From an uncultured Candidatus Saccharibacteria bacterium (GTDB taxonomy: Bacteria; Patescibacteriota; Minisyncoccia; Phycocordibacterales; EsbW-18), in NCBI GenBank assembly GCA_964478705.1, contig CAYZIR010000007.1, positions 1-45,608 on the forward strand: a DNA stretch of 45,608 nucleotides. The letters run 5' to 3'. Of the stretch, positions 6,535-21,520 are shown piece by piece. Positions within the stretch are counted from its first letter, which is position 1. Each line of letters starts with the position of its first letter. The translations under genes and the position numbers were made by a program. The notes below the pieces were generated by a model. It was given only the letters and a program-made list of their open reading frames with translations. It did no database searches and was not told where the DNA came from.

Positions 6535-7032
6535 TTACTGTTTTGTTCTCTCAAGTAAACTTTTGAACTCATCGCTCGTGAGATGGAGAAGTCGAGCGTC
6601 CATACCAAGTGGAGAGTTGGTGATTTCCTCCCCCATCCACGGCTCTGGTGTATAGGTCTCTGCTGATTCGATGGATGGAAACTCTACCTCAGCACGTACC
6701 AGACCTTCAAAACGTCCGTGGTATATCTTGATAGAGATTTCTGGATTTTCTGAAATCAGATAGCCATCTCGAATGATTCCGTTGGATTCTTTCCCTTGTT
6801 TCAAGGATTCAAATTTTTCTTTTGTGATGGAATGTTTTTCTTTTTCGTGTGAGACAAAAGAGTCGGCGCCGGGTAGAGCGCGTTTGATTTCGAGTTCATA
6901 GGTATCACCCTTTTTCTGAATACGCTCTTGAACGCCGTCCGCGTCTTTTAAGAAATATCGCTCATAACGTATCGGGGGTTCCCCGGATATATCAGGTAGT
7001 GCGGTAACCAAGAATTTTCGTTCGATTTCCAT
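6535..7032 (-). CDS. CYTH-domain protein (triphosphate tunnel metalloenzyme / CyaB-like)
   Basis: N-terminal hallmark MEIERKFLV. The size (165 aa) and the alternating Glu/Lys/Arg beta-strand pattern are typical of CYTH. Confidence 0.85.
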   Translation of the reverse strand: MEIERKFLVTALPDISGEPPIRYERYFLKDADGVQERIQKKGDTYELEIKRALPGADSFVSHEKEKHSITKEKFESLKQGKESNGIIRDGYLISENPEISIKIYHGRFEGLVRAEVEFPSIESAETYTPEPWMGEEITNSPLGMDARLLHLTSDEFKSLLERTKQ

Positions 7033-7041
7033 AGATGTATT

Positions 7042-7443
7042 CTACTCCCCAAACTCCTCTTCTTCTCGCTTCTGAATCCCCTCCTCGTCATGGCCGAAAT
7101 GGTGGCCAAGTTCGTGCCATAAAGTCTCGTAAATAATGTTCTCGATGTCCTTCCCGGAATTGGCGGCTTCCTCCTCAAGAGCGAGCTTATAGAGCGTCAC
7201 AGAGTCGGGTAAAAGAGGCGCGGCGTCGTTGTCTCGTTCGGTTCGAGGCACTCCTTGATAAAGGCCTAGGAGTTCGGTCAGAGACTCAAGCGCCAGATCT
7301 TCTCGCACAGCTTCGCTTGGTACGTCCTCAACCAAAATCGCCACGTTCTGCACCTGCTCACTAATATGCTCGGGCAGTCGAGCAAAAGCGACTCCGACCA
7401 TCTCATCAAATTCTTCTTTTGTGTATGAATGCGCCTCGTTCAT
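7042..7443 (-). CDS. Small zincin-like metallopeptidase family protein (DUF1025/Zincin_1-like)
   Basis: HELGHHFGHDEEGI metal-binding motif near the C-terminus of an acidic 133-aa protein. It lies 9 nt upstream of the CYTH gene. Confidence 0.8.
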   Translation of the reverse strand: MNEAHSYTKEEFDEMVGVAFARLPEHISEQVQNVAILVEDVPSEAVREDLALESLTELLGLYQGVPRTERDNDAAPLLPDSVTLYKLALEEEAANSGKDIENIIYETLWHELGHHFGHDEEGIQKREEEEFGE

Positions 7444-7493
7444 ATAAGTCTGAGCATCTTACCCTACTCTCCACACCTCTACCAAGCATCGCT

Positions 7494-7521
7494 ATTTGCT
7501 AATTCGCACGAATTAGCAAAT
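7494..7521. promoter_or_regulatory. Perfect 13-2-13 palindrome, candidate ArsR-type operator upstream of the zincin-CYTH operon
   Basis: ATTTGCTAATTCG-CA-CGAATTAGCAAAT, 51 nt upstream of the zincin start. The core TTGCTAATTCG-N2-CGAATTAGCAA is identical to the site at 7838-7867. Confidence 0.6.
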
Positions 7522-7550
7522 ACATGCAGACGAAGCAAATCTGTTCTAGA

Positions 7551-7835
7551 TCACAGAGTAGAAAGTATATGCACTATGTAGTCTGGCAAGTCTTGCACAA
7601 TACGACAATAAACTTCCAATCTTCTCTGTTCCTTCTCCAATATATCCGCATTACGAAGAATGACGATATGCTTTGATGTCGCGTGAACCGAAAGCTTAAT
7701 ATGCCGGGCTATGATTGTTATTGACGCTTCTTTTTCTTTTTTCAAAAATGTGAGAACGCGAAGTCGACGTTCATTCGCAAGTGCCTTAAGCACCTTGGTG
7801 ATTTTTTTACTGTTTTCTTGTTTTGATGTTTTCAT
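7551..7835 (-). CDS. ArsR/SmtB-family winged-helix transcriptional regulator
   Basis: KVLKALANERRLRVLTFLKKEKEASITIIARHIKLSVHATSKHIVILRNADILEKEQ matches the ArsR HTH pattern. Start moved to ATG 7835. The upstream part of the 7551..7997 ORF is low complexity and overlaps tag. Confidence 0.85.
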   Translation of the reverse strand: MKTSKQENSKKITKVLKALANERRLRVLTFLKKEKEASITIIARHIKLSVHATSKHIVILRNADILEKEQRRLEVYCRIVQDLPDYIVHILSTL

Positions 7836-7837
7836 GA

Positions 7838-7867
7838 CACTTGCTAATTCGCGCGAATTAGCAAGTG
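7838..7867. promoter_or_regulatory. Perfect 14-2-14 palindrome abutting the ArsR start codon (candidate autoregulatory operator)
   Basis: CACTTGCTAATTCG-CG-CGAATTAGCAAGTG ends 2 nt from the ATG of the regulator. Confidence 0.6.
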
Positions 7868-7966
7868 TAGGATACGGGAGGGAGATAAGGGGAGGGTAAA
7901 AAATAATGAGAGAGGGAAGTTGTGGTTGTGGAGGATGATGATTTTTGCTGAGCGGAGTTTCCTTGA

Positions 7967-8542
7967 TTACTTCCCCACTTGTTTGTAGCGGAAGCAAGAG
8001 ACAACATGGTCATTAACCATTCCCGTTGCTTGCATGTGCGCATAGATGGTCGTTGAGCCCAAGAATTTGAATCCACGCTTCTTCAAGTCTTTCGCGAGCG
8101 TGTCTGATTCTTTTGATGTCGGTTTGTAGTCTTTGAGTGCGCGGAGTTTGTTTACTTTTGGTTTCCCGCCAACAAAATTCCAGATGTATTTTGAAAATGT
8201 GCCGAATTCTTTTTGTACCTCAAGAAAACGCTCTGCGTTATTGATTACTGCTTCGATCTTTGCTCGATTGCGAATGATACCGGCATTCTTCAAAAGTTTT
8301 GCGACATCGCGCGCGGTAAACCTCGCTACTTTCTTCGGGTCGAACCCCGCGAAGGCTTTTCGGTAGTTCTCACGCTTTCGCAACACGGTAATCCACGAGA
8401 GTCCCGCCTGTGCACTCTCGAGCACTAAAAACTCGAAGATAGTTCGGTCATCATAGACCGGAGAACCCCACTCATGGTCGTGATACATCTCGTAGAGCGT
8501 GTCGCCCTCCTTCACCCACGGGCAACGTTTTTTAGTTTTCAT
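7967..8542 (-). CDS. tag: DNA-3-methyladenine glycosylase I
   Basis: CPWVKEGDTLYEMYHDHEWG..DDRTIFEFLVLESAQAGLSWITVLRKRENYRKAF is typical Tag. Confidence 0.92.
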   Translation of the reverse strand: MKTKKRCPWVKEGDTLYEMYHDHEWGSPVYDDRTIFEFLVLESAQAGLSWITVLRKRENYRKAFAGFDPKKVARFTARDVAKLLKNAGIIRNRAKIEAVINNAERFLEVQKEFGTFSKYIWNFVGGKPKVNKLRALKDYKPTSKESDTLAKDLKKRGFKFLGSTTIYAHMQATGMVNDHVVSCFRYKQVGK

Positions 8543-8554
8543 ATCAACATATTC

Positions 8555-9061
8555 TTAGTCATTCTTCAGACAATATTGCGCGGAGGAGACTTCTAAAACC
8601 ATAGGGCCATCGTACACGAGTTTACCATCATCAAAATCTTCTCCGACATACCCAATCGTTATATGTGGCAGGAACTTTAAACTAACACCATCAAGATGTG
8701 CAAACTGTTTCAAATCCTCATGAATTTTCGTAAGGTTGCCGTCATCTTTTACTTTCAGAAACATGATTTTTGCTCGGTGGTCAGGTAATGCAAAAAAGCC
8801 GACCCCACCAATCTCAACACAATCGATTGGATTAACTACAAGAAAATCTGATATGGCTGACTGATCTATATGTTCATGGTCAAAACCGTAGAACAAGGTT
8901 AGATGGAGTTTTTCGGTCATATTTCCACCTTCTCGCTTTCCATCAACAACTGCAAAAATAAACCTGTCAGCATATTGTTCTGCCCAAGCGATGATTTTTT
9001 GCTTTGCACTATCATCAAAATCAAGTGCTACGTATCCAATCTTATGTGGTTGTGTATTCAT
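8555..9061 (-). CDS. 2H phosphoesterase superfamily protein (LigT/cyclic phosphodiesterase-like)
   Basis: Two H-x-T/S-x motifs, HLTL and HITI, with appropriate spacing in a 168-aa protein. Confidence 0.65.
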   Translation of the reverse strand: MNTQPHKIGYVALDFDDSAKQKIIAWAEQYADRFIFAVVDGKREGGNMTEKLHLTLFYGFDHEHIDQSAISDFLVVNPIDCVEIGGVGFFALPDHRAKIMFLKVKDDGNLTKIHEDLKQFAHLDGVSLKFLPHITIGYVGEDFDDGKLVYDGPMVLEVSSAQYCLKND

Positions 9062-9066
9062 ATTTC

Positions 9067-9399
9067 TTAGCGGAATTCGTAGAGCTTGTCGGCAAAGTTT
9101 TTGATGCGATCGTCTTTGTCAATTTCTATACCCTCTTCTTTGTAGAGTTTCATGCGCTTCGCGCGATACTCATCATTCACCCAAATGTGTCCGTCAGCAT
9201 AGACGATTCGATGGAAGGGAATTGAGATTCCTTGATCCGCTGCCTTCGAGAGAATCGAGGTGATGCTTTGTGCCGCCATCGCTCCCCCGCCACACGCTTT
9301 TGAAATTCGGCCGTACGTTGTGACGCGCCCTTTCGGAATTTTCCTCGCTGCATCAATCACCCGCTCGCTGAATGTAGAGCCATGGAGTTCCTTTTTCAT
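9067..9399 (-). CDS. Alkyltransferase-like (ATL) protein: MGMT DNA-binding domain without the acceptor cysteine
   Basis: IPKGRVTTYGRISK...PFHRIV. The canonical PCHR active site reads PFHR, so Cys is replaced by Phe. Confidence 0.8.
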   Translation of the reverse strand: MKKELHGSTFSERVIDAARKIPKGRVTTYGRISKACGGGAMAAQSITSILSKAADQGISIPFHRIVYADGHIWVNDEYRAKRMKLYKEEGIEIDKDDRIKNFADKLYEFR

Positions 9400-9869
9400 G
9401 AAGTATGCGATGAATGCATAAGTATGCGTACGTGCTTGAGAAGTTCATCGAGTGTAGAGAATTGCAGGAATCCATACCTCTCCTGCACCACATCGATATT
9501 CCCCTTCTTCCAGAATCCATCGGGGCACACCACAAGCAGTTTTCCGCTCTGTGCATAGAGTCCTGTTTCGAGAAGTGATATAGGGGACTTCGTGTTTGGG
9601 TCAAAGTACATGATGATGTAATCACTTTTTGAGAGCGCATCAAGCTCCCATTCCACCTGCCCTCGAAAATCTTGGTTGTCTTTGCTTTGTTCCCACGAGT
9701 TGTCCCAGCGATCGCGCCGAGGGTTGAGGAGAAGCACATCTTCATCAGCTAACTGCTCTGCGATATATTTTTGCCATTCTTCCGCAACGCCCATCTCAAT
9801 ACTTCCGCCGAGAAATATTTTTATAGTCTTTATATCCGGAATTTCATGCGGGGCTTTTATTTCGATCAT
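9396..9869 (-). CDS. Nucleoside 2-deoxyribosyltransferase-like protein
   Basis: KIFLGGSI..EEWQ..LLNPRRD..WELDALSKSDYIIMYF..SPISLLETGLYA pattern of the NDT-like fold. Its stop overlaps the ATL start (ATGA). Confidence 0.7.
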   Translation of the reverse strand: MIEIKAPHEIPDIKTIKIFLGGSIEMGVAEEWQKYIAEQLADEDVLLLNPRRDRWDNSWEQSKDNQDFRGQVEWELDALSKSDYIIMYFDPNTKSPISLLETGLYAQSGKLLVVCPDGFWKKGNIDVVQERYGFLQFSTLDELLKHVRILMHSSHTS

Positions 9870-9910: not shown

Positions 9911-9943
9911 GAAAAAGACTCCGAAGCGAAATGCTCCGGAGTC
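9911..9943 (-). terminator. Intrinsic terminator after the PurA-like gene
   Basis: GACTCCG(9917-9923)/CGGAGTC(9937-9943), followed on the minus strand by TTTTT. Confidence 0.6.
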
Positions 9944-9952
9944 AGATGTACG

Positions 9953-11302
9953 TTATACCGCGACCGGCAAACGAACAGGTACTTCCTGTTTGTCGAGAGC
10001 CGTCGGTCCGTACGAGATGATCGAGAGAGGAACACCGAGCTCCTCCTCAACCATCTGAAAGAACAATGAGTCTTCGTTCGGTATCGACTCGTAGAGAGGA
10101 GTCACCTTCTCCAAAAGGCGCGTGAGCGTCTCTTGAAACACCAAATCGGTGAGTTCAGTCTTCACTGGTAGTCGACTGATCAGCCCAACGTCGTCATGAC
10201 TGTAGCCCGTACACATCATCTTCTGCGAGAGCGTACGAAACCTATCCATGTTCGTCATCGCAATCTGATCGACGCCTCCACACACTTCAAGTGCATAGCG
10301 CGTGAGCACTGCATCCAACCACCCGAGACGGAACGCTCCTTGCCACTCCCCTGTGCCGTTGTGCATATCGGGGATGAGCGCGGTGAGTTCCTTACTCTCG
10401 GTTGGGAATGGGCCAGCGCCGTGGCGTGTCTGATAGGCACGAACAACACCGAGCCGAGTAACATCTCCTTCGAAGTTGATATCGCGAAGAATCTCAAGCG
10501 CATTCGCGAATGTCGTGGTGCTCCACGTGGTATGCGGATGAAATCCGTACCACTCATCCAAGAGTACACCTTGTGCACCTTCGAGGATGAGGTCACCTTC
10601 TTCGGCACGTCGCTTGAGGTAGGTATCTCCGACGATCGGGAATTGTTGAGAGATCTTCCACATCGCCTCTGCATATTCACTCGGTGCAGAGCTCTGCTCG
10701 AGAATATCGATCTCTTCCGCGATGTGCGGGAGATGTTTGATACCATCAAGCAAACCAGTGAACTCAGCGCGCTTCATTTCTTGAACTTCAGAGAGAAGAC
10801 GAGCGAGTCGTTTTGGGTCACGGAGATCTGCTCCAACCACCTTGAGGTCGGGTCGCACAATTGAATCGTGGGTCGTTTCTCCGATTCCCATACCACAACT
10901 GCCATGCCTGGCGTTCCCGCGAAGCGCTTCCCTGAGTCGGTTTGCGGACTTCTGAAAACGCGTCACCACAAGCGCTTGCTCATGGAGCGAAAACCGGCTG
11001 TACACATTGCCACAACCAAGCTCTCGCAAATGACGAGCTTCCGGCTCAATCGCGAGCGGGTCGAAGAGCGAGAATCGAGAGATGTGCGTTTTCACACCTT
11101 GCACGAACGTTCCGCTCCCAAATTGCGCGAAGGTGTGATGCCGTCCATCAGGAGTAATGACGTTGTGCGCCGCCTGACCGCCTCCGTTGAATCGGACGAC
11201 GGTCGAAACGGACTTGTTCCGAGCAAGGTAGTCGACGATCGATCCCTTGCCCGCATCGCCAAAACCAAGATCGACAACGATTGTTGCATTCCGTTTTGAC
11301 AC
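9953..11302 (-). CDS. Divergent adenylosuccinate synthetase (PurA) family protein
   Basis: VVDLGFGDAGKGSIVDYL, GGGQAAHN, LEGAQG, TRHGAGPFPTE, GWLD and SYGP match the PurA signature order. Start set to GTG 11302, preceded by GGAGG. The TTG at 11359 would place a terminator hairpin inside the CDS. Confidence 0.85.
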   Translation of the reverse strand: MSKRNATIVVDLGFGDAGKGSIVDYLARNKSVSTVVRFNGGGQAAHNVITPDGRHHTFAQFGSGTFVQGVKTHISRFSLFDPLAIEPEARHLRELGCGNVYSRFSLHEQALVVTRFQKSANRLREALRGNARHGSCGMGIGETTHDSIVRPDLKVVGADLRDPKRLARLLSEVQEMKRAEFTGLLDGIKHLPHIAEEIDILEQSSAPSEYAEAMWKISQQFPIVGDTYLKRRAEEGDLILEGAQGVLLDEWYGFHPHTTWSTTTFANALEILRDINFEGDVTRLGVVRAYQTRHGAGPFPTESKELTALIPDMHNGTGEWQGAFRLGWLDAVLTRYALEVCGGVDQIAMTNMDRFRTLSQKMMCTGYSHDDVGLISRLPVKTELTDLVFQETLTRLLEKVTPLYESIPNEDSLFFQMVEEELGVPLSIISYGPTALDKQEVPVRLPVAV

Positions 11303-11315
11303 GCCGTGCCTCCGT

Positions 11316-11350
11316 GGAAAAGAAAAGCCGGGCTCTGTGGAGAGCCCGGC
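11316..11350 (-). terminator. Strong intrinsic terminator between the vWA gene and the PurA-like gene
   Basis: GCCGGGCTCT(11327-11336)/AGAGCCCGGC(11341-11350), a perfect 10-bp stem with a 4-nt loop. The minus strand continues TTTTCTTTTCC. Confidence 0.65.
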
Positions 11351-11364
11351 GGATTGCAATTCGA

Positions 11365-12381
11365 TTAGATCCGAGAAACTCCAGAACTACCAGCACCGAC
11401 GCCACCAGGAAGCGTTCCCGTTGCTACGTGTGCAGGCATCCGTGACTTTGCGACGGTTGCGAGCGCATTCGAAACGGATGTCCGCGCTCCACCACGCAAG
11501 TCGAGATCGTCCGCGACCATCACGAGATCCTTCGCGGTCTCGAGCATGTGGATGACACCAGCGATTGTCTCACAGACGAGATCGGCGTCGTCGAGAAGTA
11601 GAAGCCGTTCGCCGAGGAGATGGCGCCAGTTCTTCTGCACCCGTGGTTCACTGCCGTGTGCGGTGTTGCCCGAGAGGCAGATGTGGTAAATCTCCCATCG
11701 TTCGGACGCGCGAGCGATGAGATCCTTCACGGATTCGTCACTCGTCGCTTCGATGCCGAAAATATCCTGCACCTGACACTTCGTGACCGTCGGCCACGTC
11801 ATCTCGTCACCCATGGTGAAGAGATAGCCCTTCTTGCCACGCTTCTCGAACGAGTCGGTTGCGGTGTGATGTGCTGCGAATCGATACGCGAGAGCGTAGG
11901 ATTCGTGCACTTGCCCGCCACCACCACCTTCGAGGATGATGTTGCGGAGGGCCTCGTCGAACCGGTTGTCCGATTCGAACTGCCCGACTTGGAATGGATA
12001 CTGGTCGCACGTCGCATCGCCGATTGCACCGACGAGGACTTGCGGGTCCTTGATGCCGGTTTTGGCGAGAACGACGTCCATCAGCTTCGTCAACTTCTGC
12101 TGAAGCGTTCGTGGAACACTTCCCATCGATCCCGTGACGTCGAAGAAAACGGCGATCGGAAGCGATTCGGGATGCTCATCGCTATCCCTGCTCTCCCGAA
12201 CGTTCTGCCCTGCGAGCGGGCTCGTCGGCCCTGCGACGGTCTTCGGGTCGAGACTCGGATGAATTCCACTTGCCCGACCCGCCTTGACGTCTCTGTCGTG
12301 TTCGAAATCGTCGACACCACGTGTGCGACGATCCTCCCTGGCACGACTGTACGAACTCGAATCCCATCTACCGCCACCCAT
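11365..12381 (-). CDS. von Willebrand factor A (vWA) domain protein with a MIDAS-like motif and a disordered Arg/Asp-rich N-terminus
   Basis: IAVFFDVTGSMGS (D-x-T-x-S), then GAIGDATCD and LFTMGDEM downstream. AAGGAG RBS 8 nt upstream of ATG 12381. Confidence 0.8.
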   Translation of the reverse strand: MGGGRWDSSSYSRAREDRRTRGVDDFEHDRDVKAGRASGIHPSLDPKTVAGPTSPLAGQNVRESRDSDEHPESLPIAVFFDVTGSMGSVPRTLQQKLTKLMDVVLAKTGIKDPQVLVGAIGDATCDQYPFQVGQFESDNRFDEALRNIILEGGGGGQVHESYALAYRFAAHHTATDSFEKRGKKGYLFTMGDEMTWPTVTKCQVQDIFGIEATSDESVKDLIARASERWEIYHICLSGNTAHGSEPRVQKNWRHLLGERLLLLDDADLVCETIAGVIHMLETAKDLVMVADDLDLRGGARTSVSNALATVAKSRMPAHVATGTLPGGVGAGSSGVSRI

Positions 12382-12408
12382 GATAGCGCTCCTTTTTGTG
12401 ACCCGTCG

Positions 12409-13581
12409 TTAGCTCTGCATGGGAAGCGGGCGATAGCCACGCCCCCATTCCTTCCTGATGACACGGGTAAATTCATCAAGAAGTTCTTGCCCTGTTTGGA
12501 AACGCTCTCCACGAGAGTCTTTGACCGTACGAAGAACAACTGCACTGACCGACGAGGGCACTGCCGAGGGAATCGTGTTGGTTGCTGTGTTCCCGCCAAG
12601 AAGAGCGATCATCATTTTTCCAGCCATAAAAAGGTCGGTGCGACGATCGGGTTCTTCTTTTCTCAGCACCTCTTTCGGGTAGAAATCCTTCCACCGATCT
12701 ATGACATGCATCACTCGAAGATGCGAATGCGTCGGATCCTCGATCGCGTGAGCCCATCCAATGTGAAGTGGCTCGCGCTTTATTGGATCGACAAGAACGT
12801 GATCCGGTGTAATCGCCGAATGGACGACACCAGCCATATCAGCGGCAATCGTTTGCGCGATGATACGACGGAATATCCACCCCGCATGCTCAGGATCGAC
12901 CCCCTTCGGATATGCGCGCATGATGTCTGCGACCGATACAAGACCGTCGACATACGCGAGCACGTTGACCGCGTAGCGCGTTCCGTTCGGGCCGTTCATG
13001 AAGAACGACTCAACGAGCTTTGGAACAAACTGTGCGATTTTCGAAAGAGGATCGGACGCTCCTGCATCTCTGAAGCGCGAAAGAATCTTTGCCTCAGATG
13101 CAAGCCATCCATTGAACGACGGTTGTGACGATACTTTCACAAGCACCTCGCCTCCCGTCCCACCGATGACCTTCGCGCGATAAATCACGGAGAAGTCGCC
13201 GGTTTTGTATGGCGTTGAGAAGAGGTGATACGTGTGAAGTGGTGATGTGATTTCGGACACCGATTGTTTCGGAGAGCCTTTCGACGAAGCATTAGAAAAC
13301 GCTCCGGCGGTAAAAGGCTTTCCATAGGTTCCTACATTGATTGCTCGTTCAGCCGCATGACGGATGTCAGTAAGCTGACGAAACACATCTGCAGCTTCTA
13401 CTGCAAGGTGCTTCTCGACGTGATCGGGATGCACCATGAGTACAAGTTGTCTGAATTGCCGTCGCAGAGCACTCTGTTGCTTCGAGATTGCGCCGTCCGG
13501 CAATGTGCCGAAGATGCTGATGAAGCTCGTTGCCACACGAAGTTGTCTACCGACGCTTTCGAGGGTATCTGCTCCGGACAT
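12409..13581 (-). CDS. J-domain (HPD) fused to a protein-kinase-like domain with degenerate catalytic motifs (predicted pseudokinase)
   Basis: LRRQFRQLVLMVHPDHV...FRQLTDIRHAAERAI is J-domain helix II-HPD-helix III. Kinase-like features are TGDFSVIYRA, VLVKV, EAKIL, VVHSAITPDHVLV (HRD Asp becomes Ala), HIGWA in place of DFG, FYPKEV and TDLFMAGKMMIALLGG. AGGAGG RBS 9 nt upstream. Confidence 0.8.
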   Translation of the reverse strand: MSGADTLESVGRQLRVATSFISIFGTLPDGAISKQQSALRRQFRQLVLMVHPDHVEKHLAVEAADVFRQLTDIRHAAERAINVGTYGKPFTAGAFSNASSKGSPKQSVSEITSPLHTYHLFSTPYKTGDFSVIYRAKVIGGTGGEVLVKVSSQPSFNGWLASEAKILSRFRDAGASDPLSKIAQFVPKLVESFFMNGPNGTRYAVNVLAYVDGLVSVADIMRAYPKGVDPEHAGWIFRRIIAQTIAADMAGVVHSAITPDHVLVDPIKREPLHIGWAHAIEDPTHSHLRVMHVIDRWKDFYPKEVLRKEEPDRRTDLFMAGKMMIALLGGNTATNTIPSAVPSSVSAVVLRTVKDSRGERFQTGQELLDEFTRVIRKEWGRGYRPLPMQS

Positions 13582-13670: not shown

Positions 13671-13691
13671 GAAGTGTCTTTAATACACTAA
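13671..13691. promoter_or_regulatory. NrtR-type box A (GAAGTGT-N7-ACACTAA) in the 5' UTR region of the J-domain operon
   Basis: Matches the 21-bp palindrome TTAGTGT-N7-ACACTAA at 12 of 14 half-site positions. Confidence 0.5.
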
Positions 13692-13736: not shown

Positions 13737-13765
13737 AGACTACTCTTCCTCTTACTTAGTGTCAA
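13737..13765 (-). promoter_or_regulatory. Candidate promoter of the J-domain/vWA operon (TTGACA-17-TAGTCT)
   Basis: The -35 TTGACA (rc of 13760-13765) lies inside box B. The -10 TAGTCT is the rc of 13737-13742. Confidence 0.45.
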
Positions 13766-13776
13766 TAGTACACAAT
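13756..13776. promoter_or_regulatory. NrtR-type box B (TTAGTGT-CAATAGT-ACACAAT)
   Basis: Left half is perfect and the right half matches 5 of 7. It overlaps the -35 of the minus-strand promoter. It forms an 18-bp inverted repeat (one mismatch) with 13792-13809. Confidence 0.55.
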
Positions 13777-13788
13777 ATGTACTGTGTA

Positions 13789-13809
13789 TAAGTGTAGTAT
13801 TGACACTAA
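13789..13809. promoter_or_regulatory. NrtR-type box C (TAAGTGT-AGTATTG-ACACTAA)
   Basis: 13 of 14 half-site matches. It overlaps the -35 TTGACA of the nrtR promoter. Confidence 0.55.
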
Positions 13810-13828
13810 ATAGATTTACCGGTATAGT
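13800..13828 (+). promoter_or_regulatory. nrtR promoter TTGACA-17-TATAGT, with the -10 ending 8 nt before the ATG (leaderless geometry)
   Basis: TTGACA 13800-13805, TATAGT 13823-13828, ATG 13837. Confidence 0.55.
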
Positions 13829-13836
13829 TCCCTTCT

Positions 13837-14535
13837 ATGAAACACCCAATCCCCTCACAAGCCCCCGACCACCTGCGCTTTGCTGTGCTTGCCTGCGATG
13901 TGGCGATCTTTACCATTAAAGACAACACACTCTACGTACGCACCGTTACTGTTAACCGCCCTCCGAGTTTCATTAATAGCCGAGGACTTCCTGGTGGACT
14001 CCTCCTCCCCCACGAGACAGCCGAAGAAGCAGCACTTCGTCATATCACCGAAAAGGCATTGATCAGCACAAAAAAAATATACATGGAACAGCTCTACACA
14101 TTTAGTAGAGTTGATCGTGATCCTCGTGGACGCGTCGTTGCTGTGGCATACCTCTGCCTCGTGCCATGGGAGTCTCTTTCCGCAATCGAACAATCCGATA
14201 CTGACGGCGCTCGTTGGATGCCAGTTTCTGATGCAAAGAAACTCGCATACGATCATGACGAGATACTCTCGGTTGCGGTCAATCGTCTTCGCTCACGCAT
14301 AACGTACACAACACTCATCAGCAAACTCATCCCAGTAGAATTCACGCTCTCTGACCTCGAACGTGCGTACGCATCAATCCTCGCAACCACGCTCGACAAA
14401 CGAAACTTCCGAAAAAAAGTTGAAAAACTCAAAATACTCACGGAACTTCCGTACAAACGGACCGGTGGAGCCTTTCGACCAGCGGCGCTCTACAAGTTCG
14501 CTTCGAATAAAGTCAAAGAAATCGAGATTCTCTAA
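13837..14535 (+). CDS. nrtR: NrtR-family Nudix-related transcriptional regulator of NAD metabolism
   Basis: N-terminal Nudix fold with a degenerate Nudix box (GGLLLPHETAEEAALRHITEKALI). C-terminal wHTH region (YDHDEILSVAVNRLRSRITYTTL..LDKRNFRKKV). 232 aa, adjacent to nadM/Nampt. Confidence 0.88.
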   Translation: MKHPIPSQAPDHLRFAVLACDVAIFTIKDNTLYVRTVTVNRPPSFINSRGLPGGLLLPHETAEEAALRHITEKALISTKKIYMEQLYTFSRVDRDPRGRVVAVAYLCLVPWESLSAIEQSDTDGARWMPVSDAKKLAYDHDEILSVAVNRLRSRITYTTLISKLIPVEFTLSDLERAYASILATTLDKRNFRKKVEKLKILTELPYKRTGGAFRPAALYKFASNKVKEIEIL

Positions 14536-14569: not shown

Positions 14570-14589
14570 GCTATCCACAGATACCGTTG

Positions 14590-14618
14590 TTGACAATCGA
14601 ATGCTTATTGTATAAGAT
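14590..14618 (+). promoter_or_regulatory. Candidate nadM promoter (TTGACA then TATAAG at 15 nt or TAAGAT at 17 nt)
   Basis: TTGACA at 14590-14595. The -10 candidates at 14611-14618 are overlapped by NrtR-type box E. Confidence 0.5.
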
Positions 14619-14625
14619 ACACTTA
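14605..14625. promoter_or_regulatory. NrtR-type box E (TTATTGT-ATAAGAT-ACACTTA)
   Basis: 12 of 14 half-site matches. It overlaps the -10 region of the nadM promoter. Confidence 0.45.
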
Positions 14626-14662
14626 GTATGGGGTTGGGAAGACATATATTTTTTACCTTCAG

Positions 14663-14683
14663 TTAGTGTAATAAATACATTAT
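14663..14683. promoter_or_regulatory. NrtR-type box D (TTAGTGT-AATAAAT-ACATTAT)
   Basis: Left half is perfect and the right half matches 5 of 7. It lies between the promoter and the nadM RBS. Confidence 0.45.
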
Positions 14684-14724
14684 CTACCCTCTCCGCCATG
14701 TTCTTTGACAAGGAGAAAATACAC

Positions 14725-15633
14725 ATGCAACCAGAAACCATCGGAGTTATCGTCGCTCGGTTTCAGGTTCCCTGCCTCCACAAAGGGCATCGGTATCTGA
14801 TCAACTACGTGAACTCGCGCTGTGAGAAGCTCGTCATCGTTCTCGGTACGCCACGGTCCTTCCCTACCAAGAAGAACCCTCTGTCATTCGAGATGCGACG
14901 AGTAATGATTGCGCGACAGTATCCGAATGCGATCATCGCGTCGCTTCCCGATACCAAGCTCGACGCGCAGTGGAGCACCGCACTTGATGCTGTCATCGCC
15001 TCCGCTCTGTGCGGAAAGGTTGACGGCATACAAGTGACGCTCTACGGGTCGCGCGATTCCTTCATTACGCACTACAGTGGTGTGCATCAGACCGAACTCG
15101 TTCCCCCTCTGGGCAACGTGAACGGCACGAAGCACCGCGAACGCCTCGCAGATGTCGCCGACTCGGTGAAATTCCGCGAAGGCATCATTCACACACAGAT
15201 GAGCCGTCCGCCGATCGTCTACCCGACGGTCGACGTGGCCATCATCCGCGCTGAAACCGGAGAAGTACTCCTCGGCGGAAAAGCGTGTGACGGCGGAAAG
15301 CTCCGCTTCATCGGAGGCTTCGTCGATCCGACAAAGGATGCCTCGTATGCAGACGCCGGAAAGCGCGAAGCATTCGAGGAAACCAACGGTATGGAAATCG
15401 CCGACCTGAAACAAATCGGCTCGGCCAAGATCGATGACTGGCGATATCGTGGCACGGAAGACTGTGTCATAACGTCATTCTTCATCGCTACGTACGTATT
15501 CGGGGCTCTCACGCCAAGTGACGACCTCGACTATCTCACGTGGATCCCTGTTCTGCAGGTCATGGAACACCTCGTTCCTGAGCACGAGCCATTGGGGCAC
15601 ATGCTCATCTCGCATTTCAACCAGACACTCTGA
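14725..15633 (+). CDS. nadM: Bifunctional NMN adenylyltransferase (NadM-type) / Nudix hydrolase
   Basis: IGVIVARFQVPCLHKGHRYL carries the nucleotidyltransferase HxGH motif. The C-terminal Nudix box is GGFVDPTKDASYADAGKREAFEETNG. AAGGAG RBS 9 nt before ATG 14725. The 14587 TTG extension is rejected. Confidence 0.88.
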   Translation: MQPETIGVIVARFQVPCLHKGHRYLINYVNSRCEKLVIVLGTPRSFPTKKNPLSFEMRRVMIARQYPNAIIASLPDTKLDAQWSTALDAVIASALCGKVDGIQVTLYGSRDSFITHYSGVHQTELVPPLGNVNGTKHRERLADVADSVKFREGIIHTQMSRPPIVYPTVDVAIIRAETGEVLLGGKACDGGKLRFIGGFVDPTKDASYADAGKREAFEETNGMEIADLKQIGSAKIDDWRYRGTEDCVITSFFIATYVFGALTPSDDLDYLTWIPVLQVMEHLVPEHEPLGHMLISHFNQTL

Positions 15634-15644
15634 AGGAGAGTGCT

Positions 15645-17048
15645 ATGAACGCGAACATGGAAATCGGCAACACCATCACCCGCACCGACAGCTACAAGGT
15701 CACGCATCACCTGCAGTACCCCGGAAAGACGGAGATCCTTTTTTCCTTCTTCGAGAGTCGCGGTGGCGATTTCCCCACGGTCACCTTCTACGGCCTCCAG
15801 TATTACCTCAAGCGGTATCTCGAGGGCGTTGTGGTCACCGAGAAGATGTTGCCGAAGGCCCGTCGGCGCTTCGCCGCGCACTTCGGATCCACCAAGCTCT
15901 TCAATGAACAGGCGTGGCAGAGAATCATCGATGTGCACGGTGGCAAGTTGCCCATCCGCATCAAGGCGGTTCCCGAGGGGACGACCATCCCCACGAGCAA
16001 CGTGTTGATGACGGTCGAAAACACCGATCCTGAGATTCCGTGGGTCACGAACTACGTTGAGACACTTCTCTCGATGTTGTGGTATCCGTCGACGGTGGCA
16101 ACCCAGAGCCGTGCGATGCGGAAGCTCGTTCTCTCCTTCCTAGAAGAGACTGGCGATCCGTCACTCATCGACTTCAAGGTTCACGATTTCGGATTCCGTG
16201 GCTCGACTTCGGTCGAATCCGCGGGAATCGGTGGCTCGGCTCATCTCGTTTCCTTCAAGGGAACGGACACACTGGTTGCGCTCGACATCGCTGAGGATTA
16301 CTACGGAGAAGAGTGTGCGGGATTTTCCATCCCCGCCGCTGAGCACTCCACGATCACTTCGTGGGGCAGAGCTCGAGAGGTGGACGCCTATGAGAACATG
16401 CTCACGGCGTTCCCGACCGGCCTCGTTGCGGTGGTTTCCGACAGCTACGACATCTTCCGCGCCTGCAGTGAACTCTGGGGCAAGGAACTTCGTGACAAGG
16501 TTCTCAATCGCGATGGTGTCTTGGTGGTTCGTCCTGACAGTGGATACCCGCCGGACGTGGTCGTGAAGGTGCTCGATATTCTCGGCAACGCCTTCGGCTA
16601 CAGCATCAACGGCAAGGGCTACAAGGTCTTGAACCCGAAGGTGCGCGTCATCCAGGGCGATGGCATCGACTTCTCGATGCTTCGCCGAGTACTCGAAGCG
16701 ATGAAACAGCACGGCTGGTCGGCCGACAACGTCGCGTTCGGTTCCGGTGGTGGCCTTCTGCAGAAGCTGAACCGCGATACCTTGAAGTTCGCGTTCAAAG
16801 CCTGTGCAGTCCGCATCGAAGATCTCTGGCACGACGACATCATGAAGGACCCGGTGACGGATCATTCCAAGCGTTCGAAGGCTGGTCGTCTCGTCCTCGT
16901 CAAGGATGACAAGGAATGGAAGACCGTGCGCGAAGAGGAAGCGATGCGTGCAGGGCTCAACAACGAGCTCGTCACGGTTTTCGAGAATGGTGAAGTCCTT
17001 GTGGACTACACGTTCAGCGAGATCCGCGAACGAGCGCTCGTCGGCTGA
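15645..17048 (+). CDS. nadV: Nicotinamide phosphoribosyltransferase (Nampt/NadV)
   Basis: TDSYKVTHHLQYP, HDFGFRGSTS and VVSDSYD are classical Nampt motifs. 467 aa. Confidence 0.93.
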   Translation: MNANMEIGNTITRTDSYKVTHHLQYPGKTEILFSFFESRGGDFPTVTFYGLQYYLKRYLEGVVVTEKMLPKARRRFAAHFGSTKLFNEQAWQRIIDVHGGKLPIRIKAVPEGTTIPTSNVLMTVENTDPEIPWVTNYVETLLSMLWYPSTVATQSRAMRKLVLSFLEETGDPSLIDFKVHDFGFRGSTSVESAGIGGSAHLVSFKGTDTLVALDIAEDYYGEECAGFSIPAAEHSTITSWGRAREVDAYENMLTAFPTGLVAVVSDSYDIFRACSELWGKELRDKVLNRDGVLVVRPDSGYPPDVVVKVLDILGNAFGYSINGKGYKVLNPKVRVIQGDGIDFSMLRRVLEAMKQHGWSADNVAFGSGGGLLQKLNRDTLKFAFKACAVRIEDLWHDDIMKDPVTDHSKRSKAGRLVLVKDDKEWKTVREEEAMRAGLNNELVTVFENGEVLVDYTFSEIRERALVG

Positions 17049-19956: not shown

Positions 19957-21520
19957 CACACGAGAAGAATGTATAAAGTATGAAGAAAATAAATTTTATA
20001 CAATCTGAAACTGGTATAGGTATGGAACTAGAGCTTAGTTCCAACCTTGTTATTGTTGGGGCTAATGGTTCAGGTAAATCAAGATTTGGTTCTACCCTTG
20101 AAAAAAATAACCCTCATTCTAAAAGAATATCTGCCCAAAGATATCTACAACTTCAAGAAAACGTTCAGAAGCAAGATTTTGAAAGTGCTGAAAACAGTCT
20201 TAAATCAGTTTTCAAAAACCAATCTGTAATCACTCCTCAAAATGATTTTCAACAAGCACTCATTACTCTTTTTGCTGAAGAGGGTAAAAGAGATGCTGAA
20301 TATGTTGCCCAGGCAAAATTAAGTGGTAAAACCAAACTAGAAATACCTCAGTCAAAAAAAGAACAAGTACTTGATGTTTGGAGCTTTGTTTTTCCTAACA
20401 GGTTGTTAAAACTTGAAAAAGATAGAATCAAAGGCGTAAGTGATACCAATGAATTTTCTGGCTCAGAATTAAGTGATGGAGAAAGAGTTGGTTTGTATCT
20501 TATCTCTCAAGTATTACTTGCTCCCCAAGATTGTCTACTTATCATAGACGAGCCGGAAATACACTTACATAAATCTTTAATGACGAGATTGTGGAATAAG
20601 CTGGAAAATGTAAGAAGTGATTGTACTTTTATTTACATTACACACGATCTAGATTTTGCAGTCTCAAAGTCTGCTTCAAAAACAATATGGATTGAGTGGT
20701 ATAAGGACTTAAAGTGGAAATGGACAGAGATTAGCTCTGCTGAATACATACCTGACAACTTGCTCCTAGAAGTTCTTGGTAGTAGAAATCCAATTTTATT
20801 TGTTGAGGGAGATAAGGGCAGTTTAGATCAACAACTATACCAGTCTTACTATGAACATTTTACTGTCATACCAAGAGGTAGTTGTGAGAAGGTTATTGAA
20901 GCAGTCAAGGGTCTCAATGATAACCAATCATTGCATCACAATAAGGCTTTTGGCTTAATTGACCGAGATTATAGGATTGAGGCAGAAATAACTACACTCA
21001 AGAGCAAAAATATATTTACTACTCCGACCAAACATATTGAAAATATATTTTTGTTTCCTGAAATTATTGGAATAGTTGCGGAATATCTTTCTCAAAAAGA
21101 AAAGAAAGACATAATAATTACTGAAATAAAAGAGGAGTTTAAGTCCCAACTAGAAAATATTAACTTTTCAATTAAAAAAACGAGATTGTTAAGTTATCTA
21201 GCAAGAGAAGCTGGCCAGATAAAAGATGAAGCTTCTCTGGTAAATTTTAAGTCTAGATTATCAAGTGGGATTGATACTTTCCTTGGTACCATTACACCTG
21301 TTGTTGAAACTGAAGATATCTTAGAGATCTTAAAACTATACCCTCACAAAGGTTTAGTTTCTAAAGCCCAATCTCAATTAGGAATAAAAGATAATTTATA
21401 TCAAAACATTGTTCTTAGTTTTCTAACATCTCAAAAGAGAAAAGAATTAACGGAAATACTTAAAAAGTATTTACCTGATATATCTTAAGTGTAGTTGAAT
21501 TATTATAGTCACACGAGAAG
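19957..21520 (+). mobile_element. AT-rich single-gene insertion bounded by 11-bp direct repeats CACACGAGAAG
   Basis: Repeats at 19957-19967 and 21510-21520 bracket the 19980..21488 gene exactly. A sampled 60-nt stretch is ~28% GC against 42-55% in the flanks. It sits 13 nt after the tRNA-Glu. Confidence 0.55.
19980..21488 (+). CDS. ABC-type ATPase fused to a DUF4435/TOPRIM-like domain (OLD/PARIS-like defence candidate)
   Basis: Walker A GANGSGKS, signature-like LSDGER, Walker B LLIIDEPEIHLH and H-loop ITHD. The C-terminal part has ILFVEGDKGSLD...GLIDRDYR (E...DxD Toprim-like). Confidence 0.8.
   Translation: MKKINFIQSETGIGMELELSSNLVIVGANGSGKSRFGSTLEKNNPHSKRISAQRYLQLQENVQKQDFESAENSLKSVFKNQSVITPQNDFQQALITLFAEEGKRDAEYVAQAKLSGKTKLEIPQSKKEQVLDVWSFVFPNRLLKLEKDRIKGVSDTNEFSGSELSDGERVGLYLISQVLLAPQDCLLIIDEPEIHLHKSLMTRLWNKLENVRSDCTFIYITHDLDFAVSKSASKTIWIEWYKDLKWKWTEISSAEYIPDNLLLEVLGSRNPILFVEGDKGSLDQQLYQSYYEHFTVIPRGSCEKVIEAVKGLNDNQSLHHNKAFGLIDRDYRIEAEITTLKSKNIFTTPTKHIENIFLFPEIIGIVAEYLSQKEKKDIIITEIKEEFKSQLENINFSIKKTRLLSYLAREAGQIKDEASLVNFKSRLSSGIDTFLGTITPVVETEDILEILKLYPHKGLVSKAQSQLGIKDNLYQNIVLSFLTSQKRKELTEILKKYLPDIS

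Follow-up and report, generated by a model that had tools for sequence, protein, structure and literature searches.

We analysed a stretch of 45,608 nucleotides from a Candidatus Saccharibacteria genome (contig CAYZIR010000007.1; this whole stretch is called the window below) around a gene on the minus strand at 9953..11302, which encodes a PurA-like protein of 449 amino acids. The gene belongs to a three-gene cassette together with a gene for a von Willebrand A (vWA)-fold protein and a gene for a protein with a J-domain and a kinase-like domain. Judging from sequence comparison, we favour, with fair confidence, the reading that the PurA-like protein is the enzymatic component of a conserved mobile module, in which it would activate a purine nucleotide with guanosine triphosphate (GTP) for a nucleophile other than aspartate, in metabolism linked to nicotinamide adenine dinucleotide (NAD) and adenylate or in phage-host conflict. 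The module consists of the J-domain/kinase-like protein, the vWA protein with its metal ion-dependent adhesion site (MIDAS) and the PurA-like ligase, often with an NrtR-type regulator made of a Nudix domain and a winged helix-turn-helix. The altered active site, the gene module and the NrtR/NAD linkage appear to be new, and the module undescribed; a full-text literature search found no description of the altered active site, the cassette or the linkage. The family itself is already visible as PHROG 1211 and as "PurA-like" in Actinobacteriophage annotations. An earlier note on this DNA, made from the letters alone, was right in what it observed and partly right in its interpretation, and it had missed the link to NrtR and NAD salvage and the distribution in phages.

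Active site and identity of the PurA-like family

The minus-strand open reading frame of the PurA-like gene begins with TTG 11359 and ends with the stop codon at 9953, which is included in the gene coordinates, and the GTG at 11302 lies inside this frame. A Shine-Dalgarno sequence, GGAGG, was read directly from the minus strand at 11309..11313, 6 nucleotides before the GTG, and the N-termini of the homologues aligned with GTG 11302 and not with the longer TTG 11359 frame, which agreed with the start preferred in the earlier note. The protein from GTG 11302 starts MSKRNATIVVDLGFGDAGKG and contains all the motifs that the note had quoted: GDAGKG (residues 15-20), GGGQAAHN (40-47), GSCGMGIGETT (134-144), LEGAQG (240-245), TRHGAGPFPTE (292-302), GTGEWQGAFRLGWLD (316-330), TNMD (350-353) and SYGP (430-433). 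Pfam PF00709 covered residues 8-434 with 228.6 bits, solved PurA structures in the Protein Data Bank (PDB) were matched at only about 1e-35, and the phage family phrog_1211 matched at 7e-77. These matches showed a predicted adenylosuccinate-synthetase fold.

The curated NCBIfam PurA equivalogs were not reached (NF002223 and TIGR00184 were among those tested; 190.5 bits against a cut-off of 402 and 160.4 against 395.6), and the PurZ model NF038379 gave 50.9 bits against a cut-off of 300. In a neighbour-joining tree of 54 sequences and 425 columns, with only nine canonical PurAs and 50 bootstraps, the family was split from canonical PurA and PurZ in 50/50 bootstraps, and the branching inside the family departed from taxonomy. 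On average, family members were 44% identical to each other, 27.5% identical to a canonical PurA and 22.5% identical to a PurZ. The divergence from PurA and PurZ for which the earlier note had proposed a phylogeny was thus found both in the curated models and in the tree.

The functional positions of E. coli PurA were placed on 82 family members and set against those of three PurZ sequences and of nine canonical PurAs, the latter drawn from different phyla; the roles of these positions are what we take them to be from the Fromm/Honzatko structural work. The P-loop and the catalytic residues D13, K16, H41 and Q224 (D16, K19, H46 and Q244 in the window protein), which canonical PurA keeps, were invariant in all 82 members. 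The guanine-reading residues D333 and S414 (window D353 and S430) were invariant in the family as well, and among the canonical PurAs D333 was kept and S414 was found in 7/9. T239, a contact to the 5'-phosphate of inosine monophosphate (IMP), was kept in both groups (window T259). Three further contacts to this phosphate are kept by canonical PurA and were changed in the family: N38 to Q (window Q43), T129 to C (window C136), and R143, which comes from the other subunit, mostly to H, Y or F. In the aspartate site, R/K131 was M, V or I (window M138), T301 was Q (Q321), R303 was deleted, R305 was F or L (F324), and V273 in the region of this site was H (H294), all at positions that canonical PurA keeps. 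The loop residue P135, also kept in canonical PurA, was E (E142), and T300 in another loop, which is T or V in canonical PurA, was W (W320). The aspartate-binding residues were lost in 82/82 family members. This analysis showed that, at the aligned positions, all the residues with which E. coli PurA binds L-aspartate, and some of its 5'-phosphate cradle, have been swapped for another conserved set (Q43, C136, E142, H294, W320, Q321 and F324).

K331 was N, H or C in the family and was also variable in canonical PurA (L in Listeria, S in Bacillus). The earlier note had taken TNMD, in the place of (N/T)KxD, for an altered guanine-specificity motif; the motif does read TNMD, but it tells little about specificity, because its K varies even in ordinary PurA, and the equivalents of D333 and S414 are kept. 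The altered loops that it had described are present and the aspartate residues are gone from them, but they are the signature of a large family and not a peculiarity of the window gene. Its further proposal, that the enzyme ligates something other than IMP and aspartate using GTP, fits the loss of the aspartate site, but the residues for purine activation and guanine reading are invariant. An IMP-like substrate and GTP are probably retained, because D13, H41, Q224, D333 and S414 are invariant, and only the second substrate is clearly changed. The most likely function is that of a GTP-dependent 6-oxopurine-nucleotide ligase with a non-aspartate nucleophile.

Compared with PurA itself (EC 6.3.4.4; E. 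coli, PDB 1ADE/1CG0), the family shares the whole-length fold, the P-loop, D13, H41, Q224, K16, T239, D333 and S414, but R131, T301, R303, R304, R305 and the V273 region are replaced, together with N38, T129 and R143, at about 27% identity, and the family stands outside any purine-pathway context, is paired with vWA and J-domain/kinase-like genes and is mobile in phages and plasmids. It is very improbable that the gene encodes an ordinary housekeeping adenylosuccinate synthetase of a divergent lineage of the candidate phyla radiation (CPR), working on IMP, aspartate and GTP. The scores were about half of every PurA equivalog cut-off in spite of full-length coverage by PF00709, and the clade was separate from the nine canonical PurAs even though the sources annotate relatives as adenylosuccinate synthetase. 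Neither a second purA nor a purB was found within the 45.6-kb window, and the lack of another purA would suit a housekeeping role, but the aspartate contacts are absent, purB is not linked to the cassette, and the family also occurs on plasmids, in phages and in Streptomyces, Myxococcus and Actinomadura, three genera that should also have a canonical purA. The housekeeping assignment was rejected on the basis of the curated cut-offs, the residues, the context and the tree.

PurZ and PurZ0, the N6-succino-2-amino-2'-deoxyadenylate synthases of phages with a Z genome, are also phage-borne members of the PurA superfamily with altered substrate use, and they share a PHROG group and some annotations with the family. 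Both PHROG and RefSeq label relatives of the window protein "2-aminooxy adenylosuccinate synthetase", and RefSeq uses this name for the gene of cluster-C mycobacteriophages (for example NC_004687 Bxz1, 153838-155133). That the family makes 2-aminoadenine (Z) precursors for a modified genome is nevertheless hardly credible. The mark of PurZ and PurZ0 is Ser or Gly in place of Asp13, and 100% of phage PurZ sequences have Ser there (PMC12884076, 2026). The family keeps Asp, and the PurZ sequences that we compared had D13S but kept N38, T129, R143 and V273, which the family changes; PurZ has kept its contacts to aspartate and to the 5'-phosphate, whereas the family has lost the aspartate site. A PurZ gene would be expected to cluster with DpoZ and with DatZ/MazZ or DutZ/DmtZ. 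PurZ examples adjoin a DNA polymerase gene (DpoZ), whereas the neighbours of the family genes are vWA and kinase-like genes and not DpoZ, DatZ or MazZ. The PurZ assignment was rejected on the basis of the score of 50.9 bits, the residues, the context and the tree, and the RefSeq name is probably an over-annotation, because Asp13 is kept, the PurZ model failed and the DpoZ neighbour is absent. In the published PurZ phylogeny (PMC12884076), sequences of this family were left in an undescribed outgroup of "other PurA homologs".

Partner genes and distribution of the cassette

The synteny of the PurA-like gene was counted at 80 genome loci and 80 viral loci. A vWA homologue adjoined it at 75/80 genome loci, where 3 of the 5 exceptions were contig-end truncations, and a homologue of the J-domain/kinase-like protein was detected at 67/80; the gene order was nearly always kinase-like, vWA, PurA-like on one strand. 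Among the viral loci, a vWA-like gene was adjacent at 77/80 and a kinase-like gene was present at 59/80. Cluster-C mycobacteriophages carry gp253 ("Ser/Thr kinase"), gp254, the small gp255 and gp256 ("PurA-like"), and the pair of vWA and PurA-like genes was also found in Rhizobium phage TM30 and Vibrio phage Va1. All three window genes matched phage families (phrog_1211, phrog_2971, labelled "unknown", and phrog_3043, labelled "kinase"). The functional tie to the upstream pair that had been suggested in the earlier note was supported by the adjacency in both sets and by 4-nucleotide overlaps in Actinobacteria, and the two upstream genes do encode, as the note had named them, a J-domain protein with an HPD motif, which has a kinase-like domain too, and a vWA-fold protein.

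The vWA-fold protein (11365..12381, minus strand) has 338 amino acids and no Pfam match. Its AlphaFold2 model had a predicted local distance difference test (pLDDT) score of 86.7, Foldseek matched this model to integrin I and von Willebrand A domains, and phrog_2971 was matched at 4e-67. The residues D81, T83 and S85 of its MIDAS motif, DVTGS, were invariant. The extreme N-terminus is MGGGRWD, and the pattern MG(G/S)GxW(S/D) at residues 1-7 was nearly universal from Saccharibacteria to phages (loci L001-L084); the Gly that would be exposed after Met removal suggests N-terminal processing or conjugation. The vWA-like family contained about 580 clusters at 50% identity (E <= 1e-30). A search of its domain fusions for functional hints turned up only intein insertions: some of the genes (P0413 and P0439) had an intein (Hint) at about residue 190, beside the "GDE" segment of the MIDAS. 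In several mycobacteriophages, such as Sauce and Shaqnato, the vWA match ended at residue 189, where the Sauce record annotates an HNH endonuclease. Inteins usually target critical sites of important genes.

The gene for the J-domain/kinase-like protein (12409..13581, minus strand) encodes 390 amino acids, with the J-domain at the N-terminus and an invariant HPD motif. Its AlphaFold2 model had a pLDDT of 91, and Foldseek matched it to the PknB kinase domain and to the DnaJ-PKA chimera. The domain keeps the VAIK Lys (K149) and the αC Glu (E163). The HRD motif is replaced by H-G/S-A (HSAITPDH at residues 254-261 of the window protein; HGA in 53/65 relatives), the catalytic-loop Asn by His, and DFG by IGW in the window protein and its closest relatives and by (V/I)DW in other lineages. 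Most likely, the protein is a pseudokinase that binds nucleotides, or else an enzyme of an atypical kind. In the non-coding spacer between the kinase-like and vWA genes, contigs of two public runs (X14 and X6) were one base shorter than the window at position 12393, either because the strains differ or because of an error in a homopolymer.

According to the comparative-genomics literature, triads of the TerY-P type combine vWA and Ser/Thr kinase signalling. The cassette resembles them in that a MIDAS-bearing vWA protein is encoded beside a protein with a Hanks-type kinase fold, but its kinase-like domain is without the catalytic Asp (HGA) and fused to a J-domain, its third gene is a PurA-like ligase, and there was no recurrent PP2C phosphatase in the flanking open reading frames.

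The degenerate look of the partner kinase also bears on the idea that the PurA-like protein is a pseudo-enzyme or a GTP switch, which would bind GTP, and perhaps a purine nucleotide, without ligation, and would serve a vWA/J-domain complex as its regulatory or sensing subunit. The lost second-substrate site and the poorly conserved dimer-interface residue R143 would fit such a role, but D13, H41, Q224 and the P-loop Lys are strictly invariant in phages and in distant phyla alike, which is hard to account for in a protein that does not catalyse, and we regard the idea as quite unlikely.

Family-specific peptide patterns gave at least 589 confirmed stretches in a collection with one genome per species, and the taxa included Saccharibacteria, Paceibacterota, Chloroflexota, many Actinomycetota, Myxococcota and some Gammaproteobacteria. 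A further 199 confirmed stretches were in IMG/VR viral contigs, many of them of 200-500 kb. Among GenBank phages there were 239 records, about 200 of which were cluster-C (Bxz1-like) mycobacteriophages, in addition to Rhizobium and Vibrio phages. Plasmid-borne members were found in Rhodococcus, Agrobacterium vitis, Acetobacter and Rhizobium. This pattern marks the cassette, as far as gene content can tell, as horizontally mobile. On the Agrobacterium vitis plasmid pAvCG78a (locus L096, 6471-10933) the cassette was followed by genes for an AAA ATPase, a DUF5682 protein and a DUF4132 protein, and an AbiEii-type toxin gene was near the cassette of an Acetobacter locus (L097), which hints that the cassette lies in variable or defence-like islands in some hosts.

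The hairpin between the vWA and PurA-like genes

A terminator-like element inside the operon was found at 11317..11350 on the minus strand by terminator scan and folding. It consists of a hairpin at 11350-11327, GCCGGGCTCT-CCAC-AGAGCCCGGC, with 10 perfect pairs (8 GC) around the loop CCAC, and the T-run TTTTCTTTTC at 11326-11317. The hairpin begins 14 nucleotides past the vWA stop codon, and the start codon of the PurA-like gene lies 24 nucleotides past the stem. The perfect 10-bp terminator hairpin that the earlier note had placed before the gene is thus real, and the lack of a recognisable promoter behind it was found again by promoter scan: the minus strand gave no sigma-70-like promoter for the stretch from the hairpin to the GTG, nor for the 3' part of the vWA gene. 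This showed that a terminator-like hairpin separates the PurA-like gene from its partners without leaving room for a promoter. A riboswitch or other known RNA in this gap was rejected: the Rfam scan of the gap found no family, with only a chance snoRNA match (E = 0.79), and the gap is too short for an aptamer. A second terminator-like hairpin, with 11 pairs and TTTTTCTGTC, was found by terminator scan after the PurA-like stop codon (9917..9943, minus strand) and closes the cassette.

The junction has two forms across the family. In one, seen in Actinobacteria and Myxococcota, the two genes share 4 nucleotides at the vWA stop codon and the PurA-like start codon, which points to translational coupling. 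In the other, seen in CPR, Chloroflexota, Gammaproteobacteria and phages, a gap of 50-200 nucleotides nearly always contained a strong hairpin that was GC-rich and unrelated in sequence. Of 36 such gaps, 24 had a stem of 7 bp or more without interruption, against 3.2 expected from shuffles, and 12 had a stem with a T-run, against 0.1 expected. Because hairpins recur there in other loci, the window hairpin is one instance of a positionally conserved element, and its recurrence fits the attenuated third gene that the earlier note had proposed.

Expression of the PurA-like gene would have to come from read-through, because the 24 nucleotides past the hairpin hold only the Shine-Dalgarno sequence, and read-through in turn would mean that the enzyme is expressed at a lower level than its partners, or conditionally. 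A contig of 388 nucleotides (about 98% identical, depth about 4) from a wastewater run labelled RNA-Seq, whose library may contain DNA, spanned 11214-11597 across the hairpin and is weakly compatible with read-through. The opposite view, that the hairpin ends a J-domain/vWA operon and that the PurA-like gene has its own promoter, with adjacency without joint function, seems improbable to us. A hairpin with a T-run is a textbook intrinsic terminator, and CPR promoters are poorly known, which would leave some room for an independent gene. But only 24 nucleotides with a Shine-Dalgarno sequence lie between the stem and the start codon, the scan found no promoter-like site, homologues overlap by 4 nucleotides in Actinobacteria and Myxococcota, the two genes are adjacent at nearly all the genome and viral loci counted above, and the contig from the run labelled RNA-Seq crosses the junction.

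NrtR linkage and the proposed function

Divergent from the cassette, on the plus strand at 13837..14535, the window carries an NrtR-type regulator gene with a Nudix domain and an NrtR winged helix (Pfam NrtR_WHD 1e-19, NUDIX 1.8e-10). It has a strong promoter, TTGACA-17-TATAGT, at 13800-13828. Downstream of it, and as context to the core cassette, Pfam identified a nadM-type nicotinamide mononucleotide (NMN) adenylyltransferase/Nudix gene (14587-15633, plus strand) and NAMPT/nadV (15645-17048, plus strand). When all flanking open reading frames were clustered, the only recurrent family outside the cassette was the NrtR-type protein, at about half of the 80 genome loci. In Actinobacteria the NrtR gene comes first, its stop codon overlaps the kinase-like start codon by 4 nucleotides and its Nudix box is intact; nrtR is divergent in the window, in related Saccharibacteria and in A. 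vitis, and it lies downstream in Rhodococcus plasmids. Linkage in three gene orders argues for function rather than chance. Locus L002 has a layout like that of the window, with nadM-Nudix and NAMPT downstream of nrtR, and Rhizobium phage TM30 has phosphoribosyltransferase-like and NMN adenylyltransferase (NMNAT)/Nudix genes a few genes upstream of its vWA/PurA-like pair.

The intergenic region between nrtR and the cassette holds three copies of (A/T)AGTGT-N7-ACACT(A). The candidate operator O1, AAGTGT-N7-ACACTA, lies at 13672..13690, 91 nucleotides upstream of the first start codon of the cassette, and the two further copies lie at 13757-13775 and 13790-13808, the second of which overlaps the -35 element of the nrtR promoter. 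Two more copies precede nadM-Nudix/nadV (14606-14682), and the pattern had 6 matches in the window against 0.77 expected. Similar sites were present in the corresponding regions of loci L002, L003, L014, L015 and L085, and a search with this pattern found no sites in Actinobacteria. The published NrtR consensus has the core GT-N7-AC (Rodionov 2008, PMC2330246), with which the core of the window operators agrees. These putative operators suggest a compact NrtR regulon.

A survey of NrtR-like ADP-ribose sensors described their control of conflict modules with vWA "peptide-binding chaperones" (Iyer 2022, PMC9503650). The cassette region resembles the published NrtR regulons and conflict modules (PMC2330246 and PMC9503650) in its adjacent Nudix plus winged-helix gene, its candidate GT-N7-AC palindromic operators and its NAD-salvage neighbours, and it resembles the published ADP-ribosylglycohydrolase (ARG) systems (PMC9503650) in combining an NrtR-like sensor with a vWA "peptide-binding chaperone"; but a PurA-like, J-domain or kinase-like component is mentioned in neither paper, and NrtR is found at only about half of the loci of the cassette family. 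The Aravind-lab surveys of NAD/ADP-ribose systems and of jumbo phages do not mention a PurA-like component either. Rodionov (PMC2330246) also listed the NrtR-regulated genes nrtX and nrtY of unassigned role. These are probably something other than the cassette genes, because the Proteus mirabilis chromosome in the plasmid set holds only canonical purA.

In the mechanism that we propose, GTP would phosphorylate O6 of an IMP-like purine nucleotide, and the activated C6 would be attacked by a non-aspartate nucleophile, giving a 6-substituted (N6-modified adenine-type) nucleotide or adduct. Candidates for the nucleophile are ammonia, a small amine and the conserved N-terminal Gly of the vWA protein, or the purine may be used in a dinucleotide context. 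The vWA and J-domain proteins would be peptide-binding and DnaK-recruiting partners or substrates (co-factors or scaffolds), with the J-domain implying recruitment of host DnaK, and partial termination at the hairpin would keep the PurA-like enzyme in lower amount than these partners. Rising ADP-ribose would switch the module on through NrtR, and this switch would place it in NAD/ADP-ribose-linked nucleotide metabolism or phage-host conflict and not in housekeeping AMP synthesis. The ligase thus probably works within an ADP-ribose/NAD-linked mobile module.

Several observations weigh against this proposal. An NrtR gene is absent at about half of the bacterial loci, NrtR-like (Nudix) matches were present at only 9/80 viral loci, and NAMPT lay within 6 kb of the vWA/PurA-like pair at only 11/80 viral loci and was adjacent at 2 bacterial loci. 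The operators are candidates, only tentatively related to a promoter of the cassette, and the scan detected no sigma-70-like site upstream of the kinase-like gene. For read-through, the RNA evidence consists of the single low-depth contig described above, from a library of uncertain nature. The 5'-phosphate contacts are changed only in part, and the window protein retains the R143 equivalent (R150). A defence role was unsupported by PADLOC v2, which had no model matching the PurA-like or vWA protein and gave weak matches to the PD-T4-6 and mad6 kinase domains for the first cassette gene only.

An ammonia-dependent "IMP aminase", whose remodelled pocket takes ammonia or a small amine, would convert IMP or an inosine-containing nucleotide to the adenine form and restore adenylate/NAD pools without PurB while NAD or ATP is destroyed. 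We find this unlikely, though deserving of some weight: the arginines that bind aspartate are now non-basic with D13, H41 and Q224 retained, clustering of the flanking open reading frames gave no recurrent purB-like gene beside the cassette, and the cassette is linked to NrtR, nadM and NAMPT. But the obligatory vWA and J-domain/kinase-like partners would stay unexplained, a glutaminase or ammonia-channel partner is absent, and the conserved bulky W320, F324, H294, E142 and Q321 suggest a defined, larger ligand. A speculative form of the non-aspartate ligase, which we also hold to be unlikely, joins the C6-activated purine nucleotide to a protein amine, with the N-terminal Gly of the vWA protein (MG(G/S)GxW...) as the best candidate; the product would be a covalent N6-(protein)-adenylate mark, and the J-domain pseudokinase would recruit DnaK to the complex. 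If true, this mark would be a new kind of protein nucleotidylation. As an alternative, the enzyme may make an analogue of NAD or adenylate, modified at N6, that escapes NAD-depleting immunity or counteracts it; this would account for the repeated presence of NrtR, NAMPT and NMNAT genes near the cassette in bacteria and jumbo phages.

The window as a whole is an ordinary chromosomal stretch of a Saccharibacteria-like CPR bacterium, with dnaE, aminoacyl-tRNA synthetases, mraW, genes for penicillin-binding proteins, mreBC, frr, mnmA and fmt. GC content was higher in the cassette (54-57%) than in the genes right beside it (about 44-49%). A nucleotide-salvage/repair gene run follows immediately downstream, at 9396-9869 and 6535-9399 on the minus strand, with genes for a nucleoside 2-deoxyribosyltransferase-like protein, a protein with an Ogt-type DNA-binding domain, a 2'-5' RNA ligase-like protein, a 3-methyladenine glycosylase (Tag) and a zincin-like peptidase, and a promoter-like site follows the cassette terminator at 9911-9882. 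An open reading frame of 502 amino acids at 11620-13128 on the plus strand is antisense to the cassette genes in a GC-rich coding region and is most likely a shadow frame and not a gene. Another open reading frame of 502 amino acids, at 19980-21488 on the plus strand, lies in a patch of sharply low GC (35-38% against about 49%) and encodes AAA_21/ABC-type ATPase and DUF4435 (OLD/Toprim-like) domains; it has the look of a defence-type gene gained by horizontal transfer.

To our knowledge, PurA chemistry, in which GTP drives activation of a purine lactam that is then attacked by an amine, has had two known outputs so far, AMP synthesis and the phage Z-base. The family described here would be a third, large branch of this chemistry, with a rebuilt amine pocket and locked into a cassette with a MIDAS-type vWA protein and a J-domain pseudokinase. 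Its recurrent association with NrtR and NAD salvage ties it to the NAD/ADP-ribose arena, which is now central to phage-host conflict. Databases mislabel its genes as housekeeping adenylosuccinate synthetase or PurZ, and such labels can mislead metabolic reconstructions of CPR bacteria as well as the prediction of Z genomes. Because copies of the cassette sit in easily engineered phages of Mycobacterium smegmatis, the function of the family is directly testable.

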